From Enterobacter phage vB_EclS_CobraSix: 47,816 nucleotides of DNA. This document shows positions 1,740-47,813 of this stretch, piece after piece. Location of the stretch: sequence record NC_071003.1. One strand, 5' to 3'. The notes under the pieces were generated by a model. The model saw only the letters and a list, made by a program, of their open reading frames with translations, searched no databases and was not told the DNA's origin. The translations under genes and the position numbers were made by a program. How positions within the stretch are numbered: position 1 is the stretch's first letter; the number at the start of each line of letters is the position of its first letter.

Positions 1740-2156
1740 GTGGTATGGGCAACGTTTTGGTCTGCTGCGTCAGCTATTGCTACAGCAGTCGCTGCGTTAA
1801 TTGCTGCTTGGGCAATGTTTAGGTGGAAGAAGCAGGATGAATTGAAGGCTAAAATGGCATTTAAACTAGCCATTGCTGATTACAAATACTTGATCTTGCA
1901 GATGCCACCTCAGCTAGATACTGATGAGCTACGAGATAAGCACTCCAATGATATAAAAAAACTTACTGACCTTCTTTCTGCTTGTAACCATGCATGGCTC
2001 GTCACAGAAAATTTATTACATTCAAATGATGTAGTTGTTTCTAGCTGGCAAAATATCTTGGACACTCACGGGAAGTACCTTCAAGGTTTCAGATATTCGG
2101 AAGAGTTAGTGATGTATTGCGATGCTATTCTTGCAAGGAAATTTATTTTTACTTGA
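1740..2156 (+). CDS. Membrane-anchored hypothetical protein (AT-rich moron between terminase and portal)
   Basis: 138 aa with a GTG start and an N-terminal TM helix (WSAASAIATAVAALIAAWAMF). The region is AT-rich relative to its flanks and ends in its own rho-independent terminator. Confidence 0.5.
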   Translation: MVWATFWSAASAIATAVAALIAAWAMFRWKKQDELKAKMAFKLAIADYKYLILQMPPQLDTDELRDKHSNDIKKLTDLLSACNHAWLVTENLLHSNDVVVSSWQNILDTHGKYLQGFRYSEELVMYCDAILARKFIFT

Positions 2157-2173
2157 ACGTAAAATATACATAT

Positions 2174-2200
2174 GAGGTCGCTCCGGCGGCCTTTTTTATT
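2174..2200 (+). terminator. Rho-independent terminator (family A: GGTCGCTCCGGCGGCC + T-run)
   Basis: GC hairpin followed by TTTTTTATT. Near-identical copies occur at 9443-9467 and 44247-44270. Confidence 0.6.
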
Positions 2201-4464: not shown

Positions 4465-5730
4465 ATGCCTATGCAGGTCAACATCACCACGAAGGTGAAC
4501 AGTCAGTCTATCCGGCGCGAAACACATAACGGTCGGGAGCATCTGGTGCTGCCGAGCTATACGCTGCCGGCCAACGTAGTCATGAACGGCGGTCTGTACA
4601 CGGCGGAGGAAATCGACGCCCACTATCAGGGTCTGGAAGGTACCCTGGCGCCACTGGGTCACCCGCAGGTAAACGGTGAATTCGTATCTGCTTTCTCACC
4701 GGAGGGGCTTGTTGTTGGATTTGTAGGTGCCTGGAATCGCAACGTCAAGAAGTCCGGCAATCGAATCTACCTCGAGAAATGGGTTGATGTATCTAAAGCT
4801 GAGGAGTCACCAGGTGGTCGCGAGCTACTTGAGCGTGTTGCAGCTATCGAGCGTGGCGATGACGTACCGCCCATTCATACCAGTGTCGCCGCTTTCCTCG
4901 ACCAGCTTGAGCCTAACGAACAACAGAGAGCTACGGGCGCCGAGTGGGTGGCGAAGATTCACAGCATGGACCATGACGCCATTCTGTTGCATGAGGTTGG
5001 CGCGGCGACACCAGAGCAGGGCGTGGGCCTGATGGTCAACGCAGACCTCGCGCAGCCTTTGAGGGCTAATTCAGGCGCGTTGGTGGGTGAATCCTACCGT
5101 GAGCGTGAACAGCGTCTCGATCGCGCAGCCAAAGCGAAGTTTGCGGCTGGCGCGGATGAATACGCCTGGATTGCTGACTTCACTGACTCGCAAGCGGTAA
5201 TCATCCGCAACGGCGGCACCGCTGAGGTGTTTAGCTACAAGTCTGAGGGCGGCGTTATCACCTTCGATGATACCGGCACCGCAGTGGCGCGCCAGGAGTC
5301 GTGGGTCGCAGTCGTGGCTAACAAATTCAAAGCTCTATTCACACCGCAGGAACAGCCTGCACCAAACCACAAAACGGAGGGCGACATGCCTTTAACCACT
5401 GAAGAGAAACAAGAGCTGATCAGCGAAATCGGTAAAGGCCTGGCCGCAAACTTCGCCGAAGCCCTGAACCCGATTAAGGATGCGATCACCGGCCTACAGG
5501 CCAATCAGGACAAGCTTGCTGAAACGCTAACTGCAAACTCTCGTGCGGAAGAAAAAACAAAGCGTGATGCGGTTGCTGCGGTTCATGGCGACATCGTGGC
5601 TAACGCACTGTCAGGCGAAGCGCTGGACGCCATGTTCAAGTCGCTGGGCGAAGCTGCTCCGCTGGGTGCTAACAATGCACAGCAGAACAAAGAAACCGGC
5701 GCACCTGCCGCTGACGAACACTTCAAGTAA
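4465..5730 (+). CDS. Putative prohead protease/scaffold protein (DUF2213-like)
   Basis: 421 aa sitting between the morphogenesis protein and the capsid gene. Has a coiled, charged C-terminal half and a good SD (GAGGAA). Confidence 0.5.
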   Translation: MPMQVNITTKVNSQSIRRETHNGREHLVLPSYTLPANVVMNGGLYTAEEIDAHYQGLEGTLAPLGHPQVNGEFVSAFSPEGLVVGFVGAWNRNVKKSGNRIYLEKWVDVSKAEESPGGRELLERVAAIERGDDVPPIHTSVAAFLDQLEPNEQQRATGAEWVAKIHSMDHDAILLHEVGAATPEQGVGLMVNADLAQPLRANSGALVGESYREREQRLDRAAKAKFAAGADEYAWIADFTDSQAVIIRNGGTAEVFSYKSEGGVITFDDTGTAVARQESWVAVVANKFKALFTPQEQPAPNHKTEGDMPLTTEEKQELISEIGKGLAANFAEALNPIKDAITGLQANQDKLAETLTANSRAEEKTKRDAVAAVHGDIVANALSGEALDAMFKSLGEAAPLGANNAQQNKETGAPAADEHFK

Positions 5731-6209: not shown

Positions 6210-7286
6210 ATGTACTTCTCAAAAGAGACGCTGGCGACTAACTCCCGCCTTGGCGGGCACTGGAGTGAGCTGTGGGCAAACCGCAACATGTGGAACCTAC
6301 AGAACGATTCCATCATTGCGGCTAACCGCGCAATCATGACGCCTGACATGCTGGCCTGTAACGCCGTTGGCGGTTTTTCCCGTGACTTCTGGGCTGAGAT
6401 TGACAACCAGGTGCTGCAACTGCGGGATCAGGAAGTTGGCATGGAAATCGTGAACGACCTGATCGGAGTTCAGACGGTGCTGCCGGTCGGTAAAACCGCC
6501 AAGCTGTATAACGTGGTTGGCGACATCGCTGATGACGTGTCAGTAAGCATCGATGGCCAGGCGCCGTTCTCCTTCGACCACACTGACTACGCGAGCGACG
6601 GTGACCCGATTCCGGTGTTCACTGCTGGCTACGGTGTTAACTGGCGTCATGCTGCTGGCCTTAACTCTGTAGGCATTGATCTGGTGCTGGATTCGCAGAT
6701 GGCGAAGATGCGCAAGTTCAACCAGAAGCGCGTCAACTACTACCTGAACGGCGATTCAAAAATTCAGGTTCAGTCCTATCCTGCGCAGGGCATCAAGAAC
6801 CACCGCAACACCAAGAAGATTAACCTCGGATCTGGTGCTGGTGGCGCGAACATCGACCTGACCACCGCTGACATGACTGCGATCTTCGCATTCTTCGGTA
6901 AAGGGGCATTCGGTACAACCGCGCGCACCAACAAAGTCGCCGCATACGATGTGATGTGGGTTTCCCCGGAAATCTGGGCAAACCTGGCGCAGCCGTACGT
7001 GGTGAATGGCGTTGTAAGCGGCACTGTATTGCAGGCGGTTCTGCCGTTCGCGCCGGTGAAAGAAATCCGCATGAGCTTCGCGCTGACCGGTAACGAGTTT
7101 ATCGCGTACGTTCGTCGCCGTGACGTGATCTCTCCACTGGTGGGCATGGCCGTAGGTGTTGTTCCGCTGCCGCGCCCAATGCCTAACGTTAACTACAACT
7201 TCCAGATCATGTCTGCTGAAGGTCTGCAAATTACCGCAGACGATCAGGGCCTGTCCGGCGTTGTCTACGGCGCTAACCTGGCGTAA
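6210..7286 (+). CDS. Major capsid protein
   Basis: 358 aa at the canonical position after scaffold/decoration genes, with a strong SD (AAAAGGA). Confidence 0.7.
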   Translation: MYFSKETLATNSRLGGHWSELWANRNMWNLQNDSIIAANRAIMTPDMLACNAVGGFSRDFWAEIDNQVLQLRDQEVGMEIVNDLIGVQTVLPVGKTAKLYNVVGDIADDVSVSIDGQAPFSFDHTDYASDGDPIPVFTAGYGVNWRHAAGLNSVGIDLVLDSQMAKMRKFNQKRVNYYLNGDSKIQVQSYPAQGIKNHRNTKKINLGSGAGGANIDLTTADMTAIFAFFGKGAFGTTARTNKVAAYDVMWVSPEIWANLAQPYVVNGVVSGTVLQAVLPFAPVKEIRMSFALTGNEFIAYVRRRDVISPLVGMAVGVVPLPRPMPNVNYNFQIMSAEGLQITADDQGLSGVVYGANLA

Positions 7287-7589: not shown

Positions 7590-7591
7590 CA

Positions 7592-7634
7592 GCCGCCGCT
7601 AAGGCGGTTTTTTATGCCCCGCTCCGGCGGGGTA
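7592..7634 (+). terminator. Tandem hairpins / terminator after the capsid operon
   Basis: GCCGCC-loop-GGCGG + TTTTTTAT, then a CCCCGCTCCGGCGGGG hairpin. Confidence 0.5.
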
Positions 7635-7737
7635 ATAATGATTAATATCTGCGCTAATGGTAAAATAAGCGAGCCGGGGAATGCGTCAACATTGCCCCGG
7701 CCCTAACCAATTATTTACCTATAGCGGAGGTAAAATC

Positions 7738-8229
7738 ATGGCGAAAATCATTCTATCCGAATTTCTTGTTTACGATCCAACATCTGATACTGGCTTGAGG
7801 TGGAAAACTAAGCGAGGAAAGATGAAGGCTGGATCTGTCGCTGGAAGCTATAGCTCTACTCGTGGAGACTATGTCGTTTGGCTGTTTGGGAAACGGTATG
7901 CTGCGCATCGCATAGTTTGGGAGCTGAATAATGGCTCAATTCCTGATGGTCATGATATTGATCATGCGGACGGTGATAGAAAGAACAACGAGATACGCAA
8001 CCTTAGAATAGCTACTACATCGCAAAACCTCTGGAACATGAGAACCCCTTCCCATAATACCAGCGGAGTTAAGGGCTTGTGTTTCGTGAAGTCATCAGGG
8101 CTTTGGCTTGGGCAAATTGTCGCTAATGGTGTCAGCCATAAGAAAAAATCAAAGTCCAGACAAGTGGTTGAGGAATGGCTTTTAGAAACAAGAAATAAAG
8201 TCCATGGCGATTTTGCCAGACATGAATAA
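7738..8229 (+). CDS. HNH homing endonuclease (HNH_3 + AP2-like domain)
   Basis: Motif DGHDIDHADGDRKNNEIRNLRIATTSQN with an SD GGAGGT. Inserted between head genes and flanked by terminator hairpins; lower GC than its surroundings. Confidence 0.8.
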   Translation: MAKIILSEFLVYDPTSDTGLRWKTKRGKMKAGSVAGSYSSTRGDYVVWLFGKRYAAHRIVWELNNGSIPDGHDIDHADGDRKNNEIRNLRIATTSQNLWNMRTPSHNTSGVKGLCFVKSSGLWLGQIVANGVSHKKKSKSRQVVEEWLLETRNKVHGDFARHE

Positions 8230-8234
8230 ACAGA

Positions 8235-8259
8235 AACCCGCTCCGGCGGGTTTTCTTTT
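8235..8259 (+). terminator. Rho-independent terminator (family B: AACCCGCTCCGGCGGGTTTTCTTTT)
   Basis: Perfect hairpin plus a T-run. An identical 25-mer occurs at 10343-10368. Confidence 0.6.
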
Positions 8260-8272
8260 GAGAGTGGTTACC

Positions 8273-8674
8273 ATGGTTACTATAGAAGAAGCCACTGAGT
8301 ACTTATCGAGTGTCGGCATTGAGTTGCCAAATTTTGTTCTTCAGGCTCTCGTCGACCAGGCCAACAGCATCCAGGAGTGTCTTGATGCGCATTATCCGGC
8401 ATCGACCGCTCTGCTGATTCAGCTCTATCTGCTGGCGCTTATGGGACTCGGGCAGGGGGACAAATACATCTCCAGCCAGACGGCTCCAAGCGGGGCGTCG
8501 CGCTCTTTTCGGTATCAGTCGTTCACCGATCGCTGGAAAGCATCAGTGAACCTGCTGCGCGGGCTGGATAAGTACGGCTGCGCCACTGCCCTTATTCCTG
8601 CCGACCCTACCGCCACCCCGGCATTCGCTGGTATTTGGATCGGGAAGGGCGGCTGCATGTGCGGCGACAAGTGA
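8273..8674 (+). CDS. Head-tail connector / head completion protein
   Basis: About 133 aa starting at the ATG after the terminator hairpin, in the connector position. Confidence 0.45.
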   Translation: MVTIEEATEYLSSVGIELPNFVLQALVDQANSIQECLDAHYPASTALLIQLYLLALMGLGQGDKYISSQTAPSGASRSFRYQSFTDRWKASVNLLRGLDKYGCATALIPADPTATPAFAGIWIGKGGCMCGDK

Positions 8675-8676
8675 TG

Positions 8677-8844
8677 ACGTACAAATCAGTTAAGCACGGG
8701 CTACCGCGCTCGTTCACCCGCGTCTGGGTGATGACCGACACAGGGCGGGAGACTACCGGCTACGTGAAATCGGACGGCGAGTGGCATATCAACTGCGCGC
8801 GCATCCGGGCGACTGGCGCGAAGGTATTGAGATGGAGGGAGTGA
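8677..8844 (+). CDS. Small hypothetical structural-module protein
   Basis: 55-aa ORF between connector genes. Weakly supported. Confidence 0.3.
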   Translation, partial: TYKSVKHGLPRSFTRVWVMTDTGRETTGYVKSDGEWHINCARIRATGAKVLRWRE

Positions 8845-8965
8845 TGCAAAAGAACGGTCAGCAAGCAGAGGTCGAGACTTTGGTTTTGGATCCAGCCAGG
8901 CATTCGCTTTTTATTGGCGGGCAGAAGTTACCCGGCGTTACGTCGATTCAGATGGAGGTTCGCAG

Positions 8966-9315
8966 TGAGCAATGTTGCGAATTGGAGCTACACCGCGACA
9001 GCGACCATCTGGCGCAAGCTGGAAGTCAATGACGAATACGGAGACCCGCTGGGCTATGCCGAACCTGAGCAAATCCTCTGTGATTACGAAGGCGGGCTCA
9101 GCAAGAAGTTAGCCAGCCTAGGTGCAGAAATCGTCGTGAAGAACACCGTCTGGACGGAGTTCGCGCTGGCGGCCGCAGGTGATTACCTGCTGATAGGCGT
9201 GTCTACTGAAGCTGACCCGGTTGTGGCCGGGGCTGACGAGGTGCGGCAGGTGATCCGCTATGCCGACACGTTCGAACGGCTGACTGATGATTACGCGATA
9301 CTAACTGGCGTATGA
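8966..9315 (+). CDS. Head-tail joining protein
   Basis: 116 aa from a GTG preceded by GGAGGT, in the head-closure position. Confidence 0.45.
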
Positions 9316-9335
9316 TTTCAACGGAGGTGCTCTGA

Positions 9336-9443
9336 TGTGGATCAGCTTGACAGTTATAATTCTCGGTGTTGCAACTATCGCGATTTCCTCCAGAAGCATT
9401 TACGAGATGTGGCGATGGCTACGCGAGAATCAGAAAAACTAAG
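9336..9443 (+). CDS. 35-aa single-TM peptide (moron)
   Basis: MWISLTVIILGVATIAISSRSIYEMWRWLRENQKN. SD ACGGAGGTG lies 6 nt upstream, and the stop runs straight into a family-A terminator. Confidence 0.4.
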
Positions 9444-9467
9444 GTCGCTTCGGCGGCCTTTTTTCTT
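9443..9467 (+). terminator. Rho-independent terminator (family A copy)
   Basis: GGTCGCTTCGGCGGCC + TTTTTTCTT. Confidence 0.6.
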
Positions 9468-9481
9468 GCCTGGAGAAAACT

Positions 9482-9946
9482 ATGGGCATCAAAGTGAAGG
9501 GCATCAGCCAGGCGAAGAAGCACCTTAACGATGTCATCAACGACGTTAAGGGGCGCAAGGTAATCCGTGCCCTCCAGTCGGCGATGATGCTTATCGGCAC
9601 CCGGGCGGCCTATTACACTCCGATCGACAGCTCCACGCTGATTAACAGCCAGTTTCGGGAAATCGACGCTGGTGGCGTGCTCATTACAGGGCGCGTCGGT
9701 TACTCGGCCAACTATGCCGCGTACGTGCATGAAGCGTCAGGCAAACTGAAAGGTCAGCCGCGCGCGCACTTCGGTATAACCAGCAACCGATCTGAGTTCG
9801 GTCCGCAGAAACCGAAAGAGTTCGGCGGCGGCACCGGAAAGGGCAACTACTGGGATCCGCATGGTGAGCCGCAATTCCTGACCAAAGGCGCGAATGACGA
9901 GCGCGATAACGTTGATGCGGTGATGCGCAAGGAGCTTTCGCTATGA
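9482..9946 (+). CDS. HK97 gp10-family tail/head-tail adaptor protein (lambda gpZ position)
   Basis: 154 aa with a good SD. Confidence 0.55.
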   Translation: MGIKVKGISQAKKHLNDVINDVKGRKVIRALQSAMMLIGTRAAYYTPIDSSTLINSQFREIDAGGVLITGRVGYSANYAAYVHEASGKLKGQPRAHFGITSNRSEFGPQKPKEFGGGTGKGNYWDPHGEPQFLTKGANDERDNVDAVMRKELSL

Positions 9947-20920: not shown

Positions 20921-21011
20921 CGATGCGAAGAGGACATGCTTTGACTAGATTTGGCTTTACTTGCAATCGGCATGGGATACAATGCGGTGATTTGCTGTCT
21001 GGTGCTTGCAA

Positions 21012-22304
21012 ATGTCAGATTACACATCGATATTTACGTACATATTTCCGATCATATACTTTACTATACTTTTCTTTCTTGCTGCTCATTCTTTCATCAG
21101 GAACGGGATCAGATTCAAATCTGTAGGTCTGATGTTCCTTGTGATAACTCATTTCGTTGGCTACGCGTCTTTACCTTTCCGTGTTGATGCGCTTGTTCCC
21201 GCTGATGTATATATGCCAGTAGAGTATATAAATGATGTTTCACTAAAATCATTCATCGGAATCATAATATTTTATCTGGCATCTCATTTACTATCGCCAA
21301 AGCCAAGAGGAATGGCGAGAGGGAAGATTTTTTTCGGATCTGCAAACTTATTTGTAGCAATATCGTTGTCGGTATCTATCCTTGCAATGATCATCTTCTA
21401 CATAACCAAAGGTTCATCATTCGACTCAGATAATTACGCATCTAAATTAGGGGAAAATGCGGGGAGCGGGCTTTTGCTTATGCCTATGTCAGCTTTTGTT
21501 CCCGCCGTTATTGTCTATAGCTTCACATCTAAATCAAAATATGCATTTGCTAAGTCATGTGGCATTTCTATCCTGTTTGGTGTTGCTTTTTATATACTCA
21601 TAGGTGGCTCAAGAAACGTAATGTTCTCAGCATTATTAATGGCGACCTTGATATGCTTCGTAACAGGAAAGATAAATAAATTCAAGTTCTTGATTATTGG
21701 ATGCATAGGGCTTTTCCTTGTGGCGGCGCTCGGGATGCTGCGCTACTCAAACTCCATGTCCAGTTCAGGAGCAGCGCTAAGTTTGGCTATACAGTATCTG
21801 ACTGACAGTCTGTCCCCAATAAACTACCAGTACGAGGCGGTAAAATATTACGACAACACAACAAATCCCGACGCTGTTGGCGGAATATATTACATGTTTA
21901 GCCAGTTTTCTGGATTTGTGCCGCGCTTCCTTTGGGAGGAAAAGCCAATTGTTACAATGAACAGCTCATACTATTTTACGACTAACATACTAGGTATGAG
22001 TAGCGGATTGAACATGGCCTCGACTTTGCTAGGATCATCACTAGTGTTGTTCGGCGGATATTTTTATTGGCTGGCTTATGCGTTATCAGGTCTGGTTGTA
22101 AGGATGTTGGATATAATAATAAACAGCAACAAACTTACGGTTATGTCAATAGCTGGTTTCGTAACGGTGCCTTTCACTTTCTTTATGGCCCGAGAAAGCG
22201 TTGAGCTATTTATGTTCATCTACTTTAAAAACCTAATTGTCGTAAGCTTTGTCTACCTTTTATTCAAAGTAGCCTCATCTATTATCCCAAAGAAAGCCGC
22301 TTGA
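21012..22304 (+). CDS. Polytopic membrane protein, Wzy/EpsG-like (putative O-antigen/polysaccharide polymerase; lysogenic conversion)
   Basis: About 430 aa with more than 10 predicted TM segments. Very AT-rich (foreign), carries its own promoter-like TTTACT-N17-TACAAT, and sits directly after the tailspike. Confidence 0.4.
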   Translation: MSDYTSIFTYIFPIIYFTILFFLAAHSFIRNGIRFKSVGLMFLVITHFVGYASLPFRVDALVPADVYMPVEYINDVSLKSFIGIIIFYLASHLLSPKPRGMARGKIFFGSANLFVAISLSVSILAMIIFYITKGSSFDSDNYASKLGENAGSGLLLMPMSAFVPAVIVYSFTSKSKYAFAKSCGISILFGVAFYILIGGSRNVMFSALLMATLICFVTGKINKFKFLIIGCIGLFLVAALGMLRYSNSMSSSGAALSLAIQYLTDSLSPINYQYEAVKYYDNTTNPDAVGGIYYMFSQFSGFVPRFLWEEKPIVTMNSSYYFTTNILGMSSGLNMASTLLGSSLVLFGGYFYWLAYALSGLVVRMLDIIINSNKLTVMSIAGFVTVPFTFFMARESVELFMFIYFKNLIVVSFVYLLFKVASSIIPKKAA

Positions 22305-22340: not shown

Positions 22341-22496
22341 CTAACCCTTCATCTTATTAGTTACTTCAAGCGCCAGCCAGGCAGCGATAAGCAGCAAGAA
22401 TATGGCAACAACCCACTTGTTATCCACGGACCCGGTGACGAGAAGGCACACCATTGAGACACCCAACACTCTTGGTATGTTTATCCCGTCCTTCAT
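22341..22496 (-). CDS. 51-aa membrane peptide
   Basis: MKDGINIPRVLGVSMVCLLVTGSVDNKWVVAIFLLLIAAWLALEVTNKMKG. Its start overlaps the stop of an upstream 21-aa ORF (ATGA). Confidence 0.35.
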   Translation of the reverse strand: MKDGINIPRVLGVSMVCLLVTGSVDNKWVVAIFLLLIAAWLALEVTNKMKG

Positions 22497-22558
22497 ATAT
22501 CAGTACCGGGCAGCGCAAAGACGAACAGCACAACAGCCATGATAAGTAGCCACTCCAT
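22497..22558 (-). CDS. 21-aa hydrophobic leader-like peptide
   Basis: MEWLLIMAVVLFVFALPGTDI, with a perfect SD AAGGAG 8 nt upstream and an extended -10 (TGGTAAAAT) further upstream. Confidence 0.25.
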
Positions 22559-22632: not shown

Positions 22633-22652
22633 TACTGTATTAATATACAGTG
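22633..22652. promoter_or_regulatory. LexA (SOS) box TACTGTATTAATATACAGTG
   Basis: CTGT-N8-ACAG palindrome lying 20 bp upstream of the umuD'-like start. Confidence 0.75.
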
Positions 22653-22673: not shown

Positions 22674-22979
22674 ATGGAGGCAAAAGCACAGAGATACAGG
22701 CTTGAACAGTTATGTGGGGTTAACCGCTACTCATGCCTGGTTGAAACGTCAGGCGGTTATGCGCTTTTTCAGCCTGATCTTGTGCCCGACAACGGAACGC
22801 GCGTGCTGGTGCATGCGTTCGGACAACTACAGTTCGCGGTCGTTATGGGCGGGGCGCTCATCACCGAAGACGGTGAAAGCATAGAAGGCGATGGTTTAGA
22901 TGAAGTTGAAGTCATGGGAGTGATAACCTTCTTTATAAATGGCGCTGCGGCGTTCACAGACGACAATCCGGTGATGTGA
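22674..22979 (+). CDS. UmuD'-like polymerase V accessory subunit (truncated S24-family)
   Basis: 101 aa, stop ATGA-coupled to umuC. Shows weak similarity to the UmuD core (QRxxLxQL...ETSG). It lacks the N-terminal arm, and the catalytic Ser/Lys appear substituted. Confidence 0.5.
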   Translation: MEAKAQRYRLEQLCGVNRYSCLVETSGGYALFQPDLVPDNGTRVLVHAFGQLQFAVVMGGALITEDGESIEGDGLDEVEVMGVITFFINGAAAFTDDNPVM

Positions 22980-24247
22980 TGTTTGCCCTGGTCGATGTGA
23001 ACTCATTTTATGCGAGCTGTGAGACAATATTCAGGCCCGATCTGCGCGGAAGACCTGTTGTCGTTCTGTCGAATAACGACGGTTGCGTAATAGCACGTAG
23101 CGCCGAAGCAAAGGCTGTCGGGATAGCGATGGGTGAGCCGTTCTTCAAGCAGAAAGAGCTGTTCCGGCGGGCTGGCGTTGTTTGCTTCAGCAGCAACTAC
23201 GAGCTCTATGCAGACATGTCCAGCCGGGTAATGACTACGCTGGAAGAAATGAGCCCGCGCGTGGAAATTTACAGCATAGACGAAGCCTTTTGCGACCTGA
23301 CCGGCGTAAGAAACTGCCGTGACCTGACTGAATTTGGTAAAGAAATCCGCGCGACCATTTTACAGCGGACGCATCTCACAGTTGGCGTCGGCATAGCCCA
23401 GACCAAGACGCTGGCGAAGCTGGCTAACCATGCTGCGAAAAAATGGCAACGGCAGACTGGCGGGGTGGTTGACCTCTCAAACGTCGACCGGCAGCGCAGG
23501 TTAATGGCACTGGTGCCGGTAGAGGATGTCTGGGGCGTTGGCCGGCGCATCAGCAAGAAACTGAACGCTATGGGCATCAAAACGGCACTGGACCTCTCAG
23601 AACAAAGCACGTGGATTATCCGCAAGCACTTCAATGTCGTGCTGGAGCGAACCGTCCGGGAACTGCGCGGCGAGCCATGCCTGGATCTGGAGGAGTTCGC
23701 GCCGGTGAAGCAGGAAATTGTATGCAGCCGATCTTTTGGCGAACGCATTACTGACTATGAGCAAATGCGGCAGGCTATTTGCAGCTACGCGGCCCGTGGT
23801 GCTGAAAAGCTTCGCGGCGAGCACCAGTATTGCCGTTTTATATCCGCCTTCATTAAGACCTCTCCGTTTGCCCTTAATGAGCCGTATTACGGAAACAGCG
23901 CATCGGTAAGGCTGCTCACGCCAACGCAGGACAGCAGAGACATCATCAACGCCGCGGTAAAGTGTCTGGACAAAATCTGGAAGGACGGTCACCGGTACCA
24001 GAAAGCGGGTGTCATGCTGGGCGACTTCTTCAGCCAGGGCGTGGCCCAGCTCAACCTTTTCGATGACAGTGCACCTCGAGCTGGTAGCGAGAAGTTAATG
24101 GAAGTGCTGGATCACCTGAATGCAAAGGACGGAAAGGGCACGCTCTATTTTGCCGGGCAGGGTATACAGCAGCAATGGCAGATGAAGCGTGAAATGCTGT
24201 CGCCTCGATACACTACGAGATTTTCAGATTTGCTTGTTGTCCGATAA
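22976..24247 (+). CDS. umuC: Error-prone DNA polymerase V catalytic subunit UmuC (Y-family)
   Basis: 423 aa. N-terminus MFALVDVNSFYASCE...SNNDGCVIARS...YSIDEAF is a highly conserved enterobacterial UmuC sequence. Confidence 0.9.
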   Translation: MMFALVDVNSFYASCETIFRPDLRGRPVVVLSNNDGCVIARSAEAKAVGIAMGEPFFKQKELFRRAGVVCFSSNYELYADMSSRVMTTLEEMSPRVEIYSIDEAFCDLTGVRNCRDLTEFGKEIRATILQRTHLTVGVGIAQTKTLAKLANHAAKKWQRQTGGVVDLSNVDRQRRLMALVPVEDVWGVGRRISKKLNAMGIKTALDLSEQSTWIIRKHFNVVLERTVRELRGEPCLDLEEFAPVKQEIVCSRSFGERITDYEQMRQAICSYAARGAEKLRGEHQYCRFISAFIKTSPFALNEPYYGNSASVRLLTPTQDSRDIINAAVKCLDKIWKDGHRYQKAGVMLGDFFSQGVAQLNLFDDSAPRAGSEKLMEVLDHLNAKDGKGTLYFAGQGIQQQWQMKREMLSPRYTTRFSDLLVVR

Positions 24248-26202: not shown

Positions 26203-26736
26203 TTAGTTAATTTTTAATTCGCGCTTGGCTTCTGCGACTAAATTACTAAGCAACTTTTCCGAGAGAGTGAGATCCTTTTCTGACGCTTCATAACTTTCTA
26301 TAGCATCCTCATGCCAATCATCCATCATTTTCTTTCTCGCATTAACATAAGCATCGAGCAAGCTTTTAACTTTGCTTGTTAATGTGAAGTCAGCTAACTG
26401 CGCTATCCTTTCAAGCTCTTGAAGATCAAGCCAATACTCAGTTCGTAACTTATCTTCAATGTCTTTCGGATGTGGTTTGAACCTAGACTCACCAGGTTCC
26501 ATTTGCGCATATTCGCAACGGAGAAAGTAGTCATTGCTCATCTTAATCCGATACGCAATATTGATGATTTCTGTGAACGCTTCCAATCGTTTTTCCCACC
26601 ACTTCTCTTTGTAAAATTTATTCAAAGCAAACTTGGTAGAGAAATATGCTGCTAGCGCAGCTACAAGTAATGGAACAAAAAATTTTGATAGAACATCCGT
26701 TAAATCCAGCGTTGTTTGCACAGGCATGGCGGTCAT
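26203..26736 (-). CDS. Membrane-anchored hypothetical protein (AT-rich moron)
   Basis: 177 aa with an N-terminal TM (FFVPLLVAALAAYFSTKFAL) and a charged helical cytoplasmic domain. AT-rich relative to flanks. Confidence 0.5.
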   Translation of the reverse strand: MTAMPVQTTLDLTDVLSKFFVPLLVAALAAYFSTKFALNKFYKEKWWEKRLEAFTEIINIAYRIKMSNDYFLRCEYAQMEPGESRFKPHPKDIEDKLRTEYWLDLQELERIAQLADFTLTSKVKSLLDAYVNARKKMMDDWHEDAIESYEASEKDLTLSEKLLSNLVAEAKRELKIN

Positions 26737-27143: not shown

Positions 27144-27230
27144 GTTATTCCTCGAAGAGTCGATTAATGCGGTTGAAGGTGAATGCCAGCAATAAAAAAG
27201 GCCGCGATAGCGACCTTGTTATTTGGGATG

Positions 27231-42972: not shown

Positions 42973-43109
42973 AACCAGAAACGCTTGAGATACTCCGCAC
43001 GCGCTGGCAGCGCCTCCGGATTTACCGCCGCCCGGGTTCCGTGCTGGTGGATTACCGCATTCTCCGTAACTTCGTTCGCATCTATCACCCAGCAGGAGCC
43101 GCACAATGA
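42969..43109 (+). CDS. Small NinH-like protein
   Basis: 46 aa between ninG and Q. Confidence 0.3.
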   Translation: MKPETLEILRTRWQRLRIYRRPGSVLVDYRILRNFVRIYHPAGAAQ

Positions 43110-43795
43110 ACAGTCAGCAACTGGAATACGTACGTCAGCAGCTCATTGTGGCGACCGCAGATCTGAGCGGTGCGACGAAAGGGCAACTGGTAGCTTTCGC
43201 CGAAAATGCGCAGTTCACAGCGACGGCGCGCAGCCGGGGCCGGAAGAAAATCACCGACCCGGTCACCGGCCGGAAGGTTAACCCCGACGGCCCGGCGATG
43301 AGTGGCAGCCAGTCCCGCGCCAAAGGATCATCCATCGCGCTGGTTGGGCCGGTGGAGTTCTTGACCGCTTCCTGGCGTCGCGCCGTGCTGTCTCTGGAAG
43401 ACCACCAGAAAGCTTGGCTGCTGTGGAACTACAGCGAAAACGTTAGTTTTGAGCACCAGGTGGCGATCACTCAGTGGGCTTGGGCAGAGTTCCGGGAACA
43501 ACTCGGTGCGAAGAAAGTAGCCGGCAAGACGATGGAGCGCCTGAAGAAGCTGATATGGCTGGCGGCTCAGGACGCGAAAGCGGAGCTGGCGGGTAAGGAT
43601 GTGTATCAGCATCAGGACTTGGCGGCCCTGTGTGGCGTTAAGCCTGATAACTGGTGCCATAACTATGCCGACTACTGGAGGGCCATGCGTGCTATCTTTA
43701 AGCGGCTTGATGGTGATTCTCTTCTTTGCGCCGTGAGAACACGATCACAACAAAAGGCGACTTTTTCGAAGCAGGGTGTTGCAAAAGTCAATTAA
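43106..43795 (+). CDS. Late antiterminator Q
   Basis: 229 aa, located after the nin genes and followed by a promoter-like region and a terminator (PR'/tR' arrangement). Confidence 0.6.
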   Translation: MNSQQLEYVRQQLIVATADLSGATKGQLVAFAENAQFTATARSRGRKKITDPVTGRKVNPDGPAMSGSQSRAKGSSIALVGPVEFLTASWRRAVLSLEDHQKAWLLWNYSENVSFEHQVAITQWAWAEFREQLGAKKVAGKTMERLKKLIWLAAQDAKAELAGKDVYQHQDLAALCGVKPDNWCHNYADYWRAMRAIFKRLDGDSLLCAVRTRSQQKATFSKQGVAKVN

Positions 43796-43861
43796 ATAGC
43801 ATACATTTCATGTAAATCTGATATCGTCGCTATAGCTTCGTAGGTCGACAAAGAATTAAGA

Positions 43862-43892
43862 GCCTCGCCACCGTGCGGGGCTTTGTTTTTTG
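43862..43892 (+). terminator. tR'-like terminator
   Basis: GCCTCGCC-loop-GCGGGGC + TTTGTTTTTTGT. Related hairpin at 46126-46152. Confidence 0.5.
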
Positions 43893-43984: not shown

Positions 43985-44227
43985 ATGAAGAACTTCCAGC
44001 TTTATGTTGGCGGCACTAACAACATCACCTATCGTTACGAAATCAGAAAGGTGGATGATGCTTTTAGTGTTCGAATATTCAACGTCAAAAACAAGTTGCA
44101 CAAAGAGGTCGGTTGTAAGTCGCTTCGCTTTGTGTCAGCTCATGATGTCATTGATGAGTGCACATCGCATTACAGGAGACACGCTCAAGGCTTCAAAGGC
44201 TTTATACGTGGACTTATTATGCGGTGA
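43985..44227 (+). CDS. Hypothetical protein (AT-rich moron)
   Basis: 80 aa, followed by a family-A terminator. Confidence 0.4.
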   Translation: MKNFQLYVGGTNNITYRYEIRKVDDAFSVRIFNVKNKLHKEVGCKSLRFVSAHDVIDECTSHYRRHAQGFKGFIRGLIMR

Positions 44228-44246
44228 AGGTGAAAATCAACAAACA

Positions 44247-44270
44247 GGTCGCTCAGGCGGCCTTTTTTAT
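44247..44270 (+). terminator. Rho-independent terminator (family A copy)
   Basis: GGTCGCTCAGGCGGCC + TTTTTTATT. Confidence 0.55.
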
Positions 44271-44345
44271 TGCCTGTAGCTCAGAGGAAAGAGCAACCGC
44301 CTTCTAAGCGGTTGGTCGCTGGTTCGAATCCAGCCAGGCGAGCCA
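44270..44345 (+). tRNA. tRNA-Arg (anticodon UCU)
   Basis: Manually folded cloverleaf: acceptor TTGCCTG/CAGGCGA, D arm GCTC-AGAGGAAA-GAGC, anticodon arm ACCGC-CTTCTAA-GCGGT, T arm GCTGG-TTCGAAT-CCAGC, and an encoded CCA. Confidence 0.8.
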
Positions 44346-44781: not shown

Positions 44782-45102
44782 ATGCAACGTATGAACCCAA
44801 CAGATGGACACAATCTGCCTTACTGGTGGTCAACTCTTCTGGGGTTATTTTCCGTTCTCAGTTTACAGGACTACGTCTTTATTCTCGGCGCGCTGGTCTC
44901 TGCATACTTCACGATTAAGACCTATTACGCGAAACGGAAAGAAGAGCGTGAACGGCTGGAAGAAGAAAAGAAACGTACACAGTTACTGGCTAAATACCTT
45001 GCTGAGGTAAGCGAGAAACCCCACTCCGAACGTCCGGCATCTGCCGAGGTTGTAACGGAGGCAATGCGGAGAATGTCCAGTGGCGAACTTGAAGCTGAGT
45101 AA
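44782..45102 (+). CDS. Class II (pinholin-like) holin with dual start
   Basis: Two TMs (YWWSTLLGLFSVLSL; YVFILGALVSAYFTI), an MQRM dual-start motif, and SD GGAGGTG. Overlaps the endolysin start. Confidence 0.55.
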   Translation: MQRMNPTDGHNLPYWWSTLLGLFSVLSLQDYVFILGALVSAYFTIKTYYAKRKEERERLEEEKKRTQLLAKYLAEVSEKPHSERPASAEVVTEAMRRMSSGELEAE

Positions 45103-45610
45103 GAAGAGTGGCGCGGCCGGGATCGTTTGTTCAGTGGCTACAATTATCGCAATCGTGATGAATGCGGGCCATGTCAGGACTAACGAGCGCGGGCTGGAGT
45201 TAATCGGCAACGCTGAATCTTGCCGACGAGATCCATATGTCTGCCCGGCCGGTGTGCTGACTGACGGTATGGGGAACACGCATGGCGTGAAGCTTGGCAC
45301 CGTTAAGTCTGACCAGCAGATAGCAGCCGAATGGGAGCGCAACATCCTTGATGCTGAGTCCTGCGTTAACCGTTACGGGAATGGCAGAAAGCTATCTGAC
45401 GATACTTTCTCAGCAGCTGTATCGGTAACGTTTCGTGCTGGCTGTGGGAACATGCGCACCTCCACGATGTTCTCTCTTCTCAGAAGTGGAGACATCACGG
45501 CGGCATGCAACCAGTTCCCTCGCTGGGTATGGGGAGGCGGCAAGGTTCTGCCTGGTCTGGTAACTCGAGCAGGGAAAGAAAAGGCGCTCTGCCTGGAAGG
45601 TGTAAAATGA
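45080..45610 (+). CDS. SAR endolysin (GH24 phage lysozyme, P21 R-like)
   Basis: N-terminal SAR domain [19 protein letters not shown], and a catalytic region similar to R21 (...NFRTSTM.....GD...AC.Q...W...GGK...GL..R...E...CL). Confidence 0.85.
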
Positions 45611-45984
45611 GCCGGTTAACAGCAATCATCTGTGCTTTCGTTATCTGTCTGCTGGTCTCCATGGCCTGGATGATTAACCATTACCGCGACAACGCCATCA
45701 CCTACAAGGACCAGCGCGACAAGGCGACGGTCCGGGCAAACACATCAGAGGCGATCACCAACAACGTGATCACCACGATGAACATCATCCGTGACATCTC
45801 ACAGGCTACCCAGAATGCAAAGAACGAACTGGCCAAAAAAGGCGAGACGCGCATTGTCTACATCAGGCAGGCGCTTGAAGGCGATCCGTGCGCTAACCAG
45901 CTTGTTCCTTCTGCCGCTGCTGACAGCCTGCGGGAATACGCAGACAGTTTACGTTCCGGCCCCAGCGGTGCCGATAAGCGCTGA
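45607..45984 (+). CDS. Rz i-spanin
   Basis: N-terminal [20 protein letters not shown] with a coiled-coil periplasmic domain. Confidence 0.7.
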
Positions 45985-47225: not shown

Positions 47226-47266
47226 CCATCACCATGGGCAGGCTCATCGTAATGGCAACATCTCAA

Positions 47267-47380
47267 TCATACTAATGGAACACCAGTTATCATGTAATGG
47301 ATAACGCTCAGAGAAAACCAGACCAGAATGTATGTGATAGGGGCTTGCAGAATCGCAACCCAGCCCTGGGAAGTAAGCAT
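47267..47380 (-). CDS. 37-aa hydrophobic peptide
   Basis: MLTSQGWVAILQAPITYILVWFSLSVIHYMITGVPLV, with a perfect SD AAGGAG 7 nt upstream on the minus strand. Confidence 0.35.
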   Translation of the reverse strand: MLTSQGWVAILQAPITYILVWFSLSVIHYMITGVPLV

Positions 47381-47595
47381 TTTATCTCCTTTTCAAAATT
47401 TGAAAGTAATGGCCGCGATTTGGCCTTCAATAGTGGTCTCTAATTCGCAAGGGCAGGGATTTGCGATTTTGGGGAGGAAAGAATGCCAGTTTTGTCTAAC
47501 GCTGTTAGACATGACCTCTCTAATAGTGGGCTTTAATCCAATCCCACAGCTGATAGTAAAACAGACATCATCTAAATCGGATGGGAGATTCCTAA

Positions 47596-47813
47596 TGTCC
47601 GACACCTACATTATCAAACTGACGACGAACGACGGCGGCGAGTACACGGGCAAGATGTCACGACGTCAGCCTGAGCTGGTGAACGGCTTTGTGCCGCTGG
47701 CGACGGAGACAGGAGAGTGGCTGTATTTCGCTCCGGCCGATGTGAAGCGCGTGCAGTTTACGCCGGTACCGGCAGAGCAAACCGAACAGCCAGAAGAACA
47801 AACAACGGAGTAA
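47596..47813 (+). CDS. Hypothetical small protein upstream of terS
   Basis: 72 aa with SD GGGAG. Confidence 0.3.

Follow-up and report, generated by a model that had tools for sequence, protein, structure and literature searches.

A short cassette at a late-gene junction of an ES18-like Enterobacter phage carries a conserved gene for a predicted single-helix membrane peptide

Between a head-tail gene (phrog_797) and the Neck1/tail-completion gene of Enterobacter phage vB_EclS_CobraSix lies a reading frame of only 35 codons (ORF35), and the locus raises the question of whether this frame is a gene and, if so, how it reached its place, from which transcript it is read and what its product might do. 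The window analysed here is the whole stretch of 47,816 nt in record NC_071003.1, which represents a temperate siphophage of the ES18-like/lambdoid kind with Enterobacter-type hosts: the head genes are ES18-like and the tail genes are closest to those of Enterobacter phages ENT1 and BHUENT3/6. The initial annotation, made from the letters of the sequence, described ORF35 as one of four related small hydrophobic peptide genes carried in morons. The 35-aa frame is present, and its sequence in both the DNA and the list of open reading frames is MWISLTVIILGVATIAISSRSIYEMWRWLRENQKN; its ATG starts at 9335, one base ahead of the position 9336 originally given. The GGAGGT Shine-Dalgarno (SD) sequence ascribed to it is found 6 nt ahead of the ATG, and the terminator said to end it within the head-tail cluster is likewise in place (Table 1). 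Only 19 nt separate the stop codon of the upstream gene from the ATG of ORF35, and the ORF35 stop codon TAA (9440-9442) lies inside the 5' arm of the terminator stem. Further upstream, terminator-like hairpins at 7591-7609 and 8234-8253 flank the HNH endonuclease gene.

Table 1 Positions of the features discussed in the text, numbered from the first letter of the window
Feature	Position	Strand	Context
138-aa N-terminally anchored protein, phrog_6169	1740-2156	+	separate insert between terminase and portal
Second terminator copy	2174-2197	+	3' of the 138-aa ORF; near-identical to that of ORF35
Major capsid gene	6210-7286
HNH homing-endonuclease gene, GC 44%	7681-8229	+	inserted between capsid-proximal and head-tail genes
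Head-tail genes	8273-9315		upstream of ORF35
Inserted cassette, 166 nt	9316-9481	+	between the phrog_797 head-tail gene (stop 9313-9315) and the Neck1/tail-completion HK97 gp10-like gene (ATG 9482)
Shine-Dalgarno sequence GGAGGT	9323-9328	+	6 nt 5' of the ORF35 ATG; from sequence
ORF35, predicted single-helix membrane peptide gene, 35 aa	9335-9442	+	N-terminal TM, conserved ISSRSIYEMW, basic tail
Intrinsic terminator, 8-bp stem, UUCG loop, U-run	9441-9464	+	ORF35 stop in 5' arm
GGAG ribosome-binding site of the Neck1 gene	9472-9475	+	supplied by the 3' end of the cassette; from sequence
Neck1/tail-completion gene	9482-9946		followed by tail terminator and major tail protein (Pfam labels)
51-aa two-TM peptide gene	22341-22496	-	followed by a hairpin
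21-aa hydrophobic peptide gene	22493-22558	-	ATGA overlap of its stop with the 51-aa gene start
UmuD-like gene	22674-22979	+
UmuC-like DNA polymerase gene	22976-24247	+
Fourth terminator copy, more diverged	27194-27216	-	after a 76-aa early-region gene
Q-like antiterminator gene	43106-43795
Third terminator copy	44246-44268	+	after an 80-aa ORF (43985-44227), before tRNA-Arg
Holin, endolysin and spanin genes	44782-45984
340-nt segment, GC 42.8%	47255-47593		carries ORF37; absent from ENT1
ORF37, candidate 37-aa hydrophobic peptide gene	47267-47380	-	AAGGAG SD at 47391-47386

Comparison with related loci shows ORF35 to be a real and conserved phage gene, with a tiny membrane peptide of one predicted helix as its product. 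About 30 such loci were found, among them 12 viral loci from a pattern scan of viral contigs, two (L221 and L223) from the junction survey described below and 6 from metagenomes. All of them hold an open frame of 35-41 aa, with no frameshifted orthologue, and each family member has, besides the intact frame, both an SD and a terminator, the SD being kept even where the upstream contexts differ. Among the closer copies the variable columns fall 18, 7 and 1 times on codon positions 3, 1 and 2, respectively, and the other five frames at the locus contain stop codons or have gained them in relatives. A comparison of substitution rates, which had been proposed as a check on the frame, gave pairwise dN/dS values of 0.03-0.25, indicative of purifying selection; the window and locus L007, for example, differ by 12 synonymous and 4 non-synonymous substitutions. 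The core ISSRSIYEMW hardly varies among members that differ at about half of their residues, and L10, G11, I15, R20, I22, E24, M25 and W26 are identical in all members. In the copy of E. coli phage HK639 the DNA of the N-terminal half can no longer be aligned by blastn, and a hydrophobic helix is still encoded there. Finally, when the window was filtered for ATG frames of 30-60 aa with a 5-mer SD and a hydrophobic 19-mer, only ORF35 and ORF37 (see below) passed, against 0.16 such frames expected per window in random first-order Markov sequences, the filter thresholds having been chosen post hoc.

By sequence searches, the family appears to be small and narrow. A large protein collection, queried with ORF35 padded with 10 in-frame upstream codons (and with ORF37 padded likewise), holds 6 clusters of ORF35, each exactly 35 aa long, from Enterobacter hormaechei and E. 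kobei, all under the sole name 'Uncharacterised protein'. An exhaustive phmmer search of 1.84 billion representative proteins added one relative, the divergent 41-aa protein P0007; because this is the single extra representative in so large a set, the independent lineages of ORF35 must be few. No relative was found among the species-representative genomes scanned or, by tblastn, among plasmids; blastn of the ORF35 region against 5,426 E. coli genomes matched the flanks and the terminator and nothing else, and full-text literature searches on the ORF35 motif and on HK639 yielded nothing about the peptide. In the HK639 record the 38-aa homologue at 4785-4901 (2444-2560 in the corresponding locus L002) is unannotated, and the adjoining terminator at 4901-4922 is annotated. 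Standard annotation overlooks ORF35 as a conserved micropeptide gene.

The product is predicted to comprise an N-terminal transmembrane (TM) segment and a basic, Trp-rich cytoplasmic tail. AlphaFold models a single helix over residues 2-34 (pLDDT 85), in which residues 2-19 are hydrophobic (Kyte-Doolittle 2.05 over 19 residues), and the tail RSIYEMWRWLRENQKN is positively charged overall; the positive-inside rule then places the N-terminus outside and the C-terminus inside. The conserved residues L5, I8, G11, I15, S18 and I22 recur at a spacing of 3-4 residues and therefore fall on one helical face, and we infer that the helix packs against another helix, either of a partner or of a second copy of itself. 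Bacterial small membrane-protein regulators such as AcrZ, MgrB, MgtS and SgrT belong to a size class of ~30-50 aa and, compared by description, resemble ORF35 in size and in having a single TM helix; they differ in that no sequence relation is known and in that ORF35 is phage-borne and sits in a late operon. The conserved face of its single TM helix, together with the juxtamembrane motif, suggests that ORF35 may act by binding a larger membrane protein.

Searches of Pfam, PHROGs, NCBIfam, PADLOC and PDB sequences gave no significant match and no characterised homologue of ORF35. Sub-threshold matches to PMP1_2, MamI and phrog_27976 were rejected as reflecting TM composition. We also rejected a type I toxin, there being no toxin family match in Pfam or NCBIfam and no promoter-like sites; in the window Rfam matches only a tRNA and an isrJ RNA and hence no known type I antitoxin sRNA, undescribed antisense RNAs being beyond its reach. 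Nor is ORF35 a plausible holin or antiholin, as it has no holin match in PHROGs or Pfam and lies outside the lysis cassette.

How ORF35 reached its position is indicated by the empty site of phage ENT1, where the junction reads TAGccATG, with the upstream stop codon and the Neck1 ATG 2 nt apart, and where homology to the window resumes exactly at 9482. The cassette has a GC content of 43.5%, compared with 57.3% and 57.4% in its flanks. In a survey of the Neck1 gene's 80 closest relatives (loci L147-L226), the junction is empty, with a gap of 5-8 nt, in 62, and it holds ORF35 in 2, a two-TM protein of 95-106 aa in 7, a 56-aa TM protein in 1, a small soluble protein in 2, an HNH endonuclease in 3 and other DNA in 3. 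The junction ahead of the Neck1/gp10-like gene is therefore an insertion hot spot for unrelated cargo; in E. coli prophages it is filled by a 95-aa or a 62-aa TM protein, and in four loci (L007, L008, L243 and L244) the 62-aa type and ORF35 stand in tandem. Although this other cargo (the 95-106-aa two-TM proteins, the 62-aa TM protein, as in E. coli FDAARGOS_1277, and the HNH endonucleases) occupies the same junction as ORF35, and often shares its terminator and the 3' junction gcctggagaaa..ATG, from which the Neck1 gene takes its ribosome-binding site, the proteins themselves are unrelated to ORF35. The commonest cargo, the conserved two-TM family of 95-106 aa, has a weak DUF2542-like match in Pfam (E 0.027).

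ORF35 is found in a second slot as well: in HK639 and loci L012-L016 a unit of ORF35 plus terminator is inserted between the genes for head morphogenesis and scaffold. Upstream of it the three contexts have no sequence in common, and the mobile unit begins at the SD. On this comparative evidence, the SD-ORF35-terminator cassette is a compact, horizontally mobile accessory unit at a late-operon junction, and the head-tail junction of these phages a hot spot for exchanging small membrane-protein genes. The filled and empty forms of the ORF35 junction offer a clean comparison for experiments.

The terminator at the end of the cassette consists of AAGGTCGC-TTCG-GCGGCCTT followed by six Ts (-16.5 kcal/mol), that is, the GC-rich hairpin and U-run on the sense strand that characterise Rho-independent terminators. 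Four copies of the motif AGGTCGC-N4-GCGGCCTTTTTT are present in the window (at 2175, 9442 and 44246 on the plus strand and at 27194 on the minus strand), with none expected, and the motif is found in at least 120 viral contigs. Among the matches listed, it follows head-morphogenesis, tail-completion, HNH endonuclease, early-region and various membrane-protein genes, and on this distribution we regard it as a generic terminator that marks gene boundaries in this phage group. The initial annotation had correctly noted that the 138-aa ORF at 1740-2156 ends in the same type of terminator, of which it has a near-identical copy, and had mentioned this next to a resemblance between its product and that of ORF35. 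Because the terminator follows such diverse genes, structural and HNH genes included, sharing it implies no kinship between the genes upstream of it, a correction that applies to these phages generally. The resemblance seen between the two proteins (...EMWRW... in ORF35 and ...AMFRW... in the 138-aa protein) extends over 9 residues with 3/9 identical (BLASTP E 0.1, hhalign probability 0.24%), and ORF35 has no match to phrog_6169; the p of 0.006 from a Smith-Waterman shuffle overstates the similarity, since shuffling the whole sequence breaks up the blocks of TM segment and tail. We therefore reject homology between ORF35 and the 138-aa protein. The 138-aa protein itself has a weak, sub-threshold NCBIfam match to SLATT_1 (E 0.013), one of the SLATT domains, which serve conflict systems as membrane effectors.

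Members of the ORF35 family share one hairpin stem and differ in the loop (TTCG, CACG, TACG, TCAG, TCTT, TCCG, TAAA and GAAA), which is the pattern expected of a functional hairpin. In every member the hairpin contains the stop codon, which falls in the loop in L012 and L015 and in the 5' arm in the others, whereas most other genes with this type of terminator, among the matches listed, have their stop codon 17-24 nt upstream. A ribosome terminating at such a stop would mask the hairpin. This arrangement lends some colour to the idea that ORF35 is a cis-acting leader, in which translation up to the buried stop prevents the hairpin from forming, the peptide is irrelevant and termination before the tail genes depends on translation. 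Such a device would not account for the selection on the amino-acid sequence that is evident in the low dN/dS and the preserved 10-residue motif, nor for a hydrophobic N-terminal half that persists where the DNA has diverged beyond blastn detection, and most relatives manage without any device at the Neck1 junction. We consider the leader quite improbable and treat the embedded stop as compaction, with a cis-regulatory role as its minor rival. Even less can be said for a chance frame in a spacer that happens to hold a terminator. That the frame is short, unannotated in the HK639 reference record and without a family match would fit such an origin; the codon-position bias of the substitutions, the low dN/dS, the intact frames in about 30 loci and two genomic contexts, and the low number of such frames expected in random sequence all oppose it. 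The conservation refutes this explanation, to which we attach hardly any weight.

More serious is the question of whether ORF35 is a moron. It was described as one, and the description holds in so far as the cassette is extra DNA between genes that are adjacent in relatives, differs from its flanks in base composition and has its own factor-independent terminator; it fails on the promoter, as the cassette has none of its own that we could detect. A consensus scan, of limited sensitivity, found no sigma-70-like promoter upstream of ORF35 in the window, in HK639 or in L012, and the 19 nt upstream leave no room for one, so that ORF35 misses the strict definition and is better called moron-like than a canonical moron. 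As far as the account of Juhala et al. 2000 in PMC3594210 goes, lambdoid morons share with ORF35 the extra DNA relative to syntenic relatives, the deviating GC content, the terminator and the horizontal spread between phages and slots; what ORF35 lacks in that comparison is the promoter that defines an independent transcription unit, which makes it a promoter-less mini-cassette dependent on its host operon. Morons are described there as carrying their own promoter and terminator, and gp15 of HK97 as an inner-membrane superinfection exclusion protein (PMC3594210). The gene of HK97 gp15 (62 aa, with an N-terminal TM helix) lies among tail genes and has an SD and a terminator, and it is the closest parallel in layout: in both small proteins the N-terminal TM helix is joined to a cytoplasmic tail that is polar and basic, and both genes are compact late-gene inserts in which a strong SD is followed by the coding sequence, an intrinsic terminator and the next gene start. 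The differences are that the two proteins share no sequence similarity (hhalign probability 0.25%), that gp15 has 62 residues and ORF35 has 35, that gp15 lies near the tape measure gene and ORF35 uses slots in the head and head-tail genes, and that ORF35 has no detectable promoter of its own. A canonical moron for lysogenic conversion, made in the repressed prophage and protecting the lysogen, for example by superinfection exclusion in the manner of gp15, is accordingly our second-ranked reading: the extra DNA, its GC content, the terminator, which would end an autonomous transcript, the position at a junction of a morphogenetic operon and the gp15-like layout all favour it, and since a consensus scan may miss a weak promoter within the upstream gene, expression from the prophage is possible. 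We nevertheless judge it rather unlikely, given the 19 nt upstream of the ATG, the lack of anything conserved upstream across three contexts, the missing sigma-70-like site and the absence of any relation to gp15, including any Pfam match to a YebO domain at E<=1.

The reading that we rank best, and think reasonably likely, is that of a late-expressed accessory membrane peptide carried on a promoter-less mobile cassette. The Q-like antiterminator gene and the holin, endolysin and spanin genes lie upstream of ORF35 on the same strand, which places ORF35 within a Q-dependent late operon, and the Q-antiterminated late transcript is its probable mRNA. In our model of this late-expressed peptide, Q-modified polymerase would read through the ORF35 terminator, and ORF35 would be translated from the resulting polycistronic mRNA. 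The peptide would then enter the inner membrane with its N-terminus out and its basic, Trp-rich tail in the cytoplasm, and would make a helix-helix contact through the one conserved TM face and the invariant juxtamembrane RSIYEMW; the partner might be a host membrane protein or one that belongs to an incoming phage. By analogy with known small phage membrane proteins, the most likely roles would be superinfection exclusion through a block of DNA entry or the tuning of a host membrane protein or of lysis timing. Small accessory membrane-protein genes inserted in phage late operons are a well-known kind; the ORF35 family has not been described before and is for the most part missing from annotations, and it adds a small twist in its embedded stop and its lack of a promoter. 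It is tempting to speculate that ORF35 stands for a class of promoter-less 'micro-morons', units of SD, micropeptide and terminator that have their stop codon within the hairpin, hop between late-operon junctions and make a 35-41-aa membrane peptide only in lytic growth to act on a specific membrane target. We hold this generalization to be unlikely as it stands; were it true, such units might, for example, tune lysis timing, protect the producing cell from superinfection or disable a membrane-bound host defence.

The four peptides of 35, 37, 21 and 51 aa that had been grouped as one family do not belong together by sequence: all pairs score at the level of shuffled sequences (p 0.08-0.7). The 37-aa minus-strand frame (ORF37) is present with its AAGGAG SD, 5 nt upstream of the start at 47380, and is a plausible candidate peptide gene. 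It is called as a gene in the protein collection, and it is unlikely to have arisen by chance, since only 0.16 frames passing the filter are expected per random window. Its only relatives are 94-99% identical, with 3 substitutions in the ORF (2 synonymous and 1 L to M), and its strand shows neither a promoter nor a terminator that we could detect. Directly upstream, on the same inserted segment, a second minus-strand frame (47393-47605; 70 aa long if it starts at a GTG and 39 aa if it starts at an internal ATG preceded by GAGAGG) ends 12 nt before the ORF37 ATG, and the two might form a two-gene unit.

The claim that the 21-aa and 51-aa frames are genes was borne out by their conservation. The overlapping pair is kept in 11 viral loci, together with a conserved -10 element of the type TGnTAAAxT, and in comparison with locus L232 synonymous changes dominate, as under purifying selection: 20 synonymous and 3 non-synonymous in the 51-aa gene, counted over its ungapped first 41 codons, and 6 and 3 in the 21-aa gene. 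By these comparisons both are real conserved genes. Adjoining it, near the tail-fibre and integrase end, is a gene for a 432-aa polytopic membrane protein (21006-22304, plus strand) that looks like an O-antigen polymerase by eye and has no PHROG match; this region may serve lysogenic conversion. On the other side, a perfect LexA-box-like palindrome, CTGTATTAATATACAG, at 22635-22650 lies ~25 nt 5' of the UmuD-like gene, which suggests an SOS-controlled umuDC operon of the prophage, divergent from the 21/51-aa pair.

Two further observations concern other parts of the window. Directly after the Q gene, at 43811-43884, there is a match to the isrJ family of Hfq-binding RNAs (62.6 bits), presumably a short leader transcript of the late promoter; it is followed by the 80-aa ORF, a copy of the generic terminator and a tRNA-Arg(TCT) gene at 44270-44345. 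On the minus strand at 26203-26736, a 177-aa protein, to which NCBIfam and further family searches assigned no family, has an N-terminal TM helix followed by KFYKEKWWEKR, and homologues of ~170 aa with this type of motif precede the generic terminator in loci L038, L044, L050, L092 and L104.
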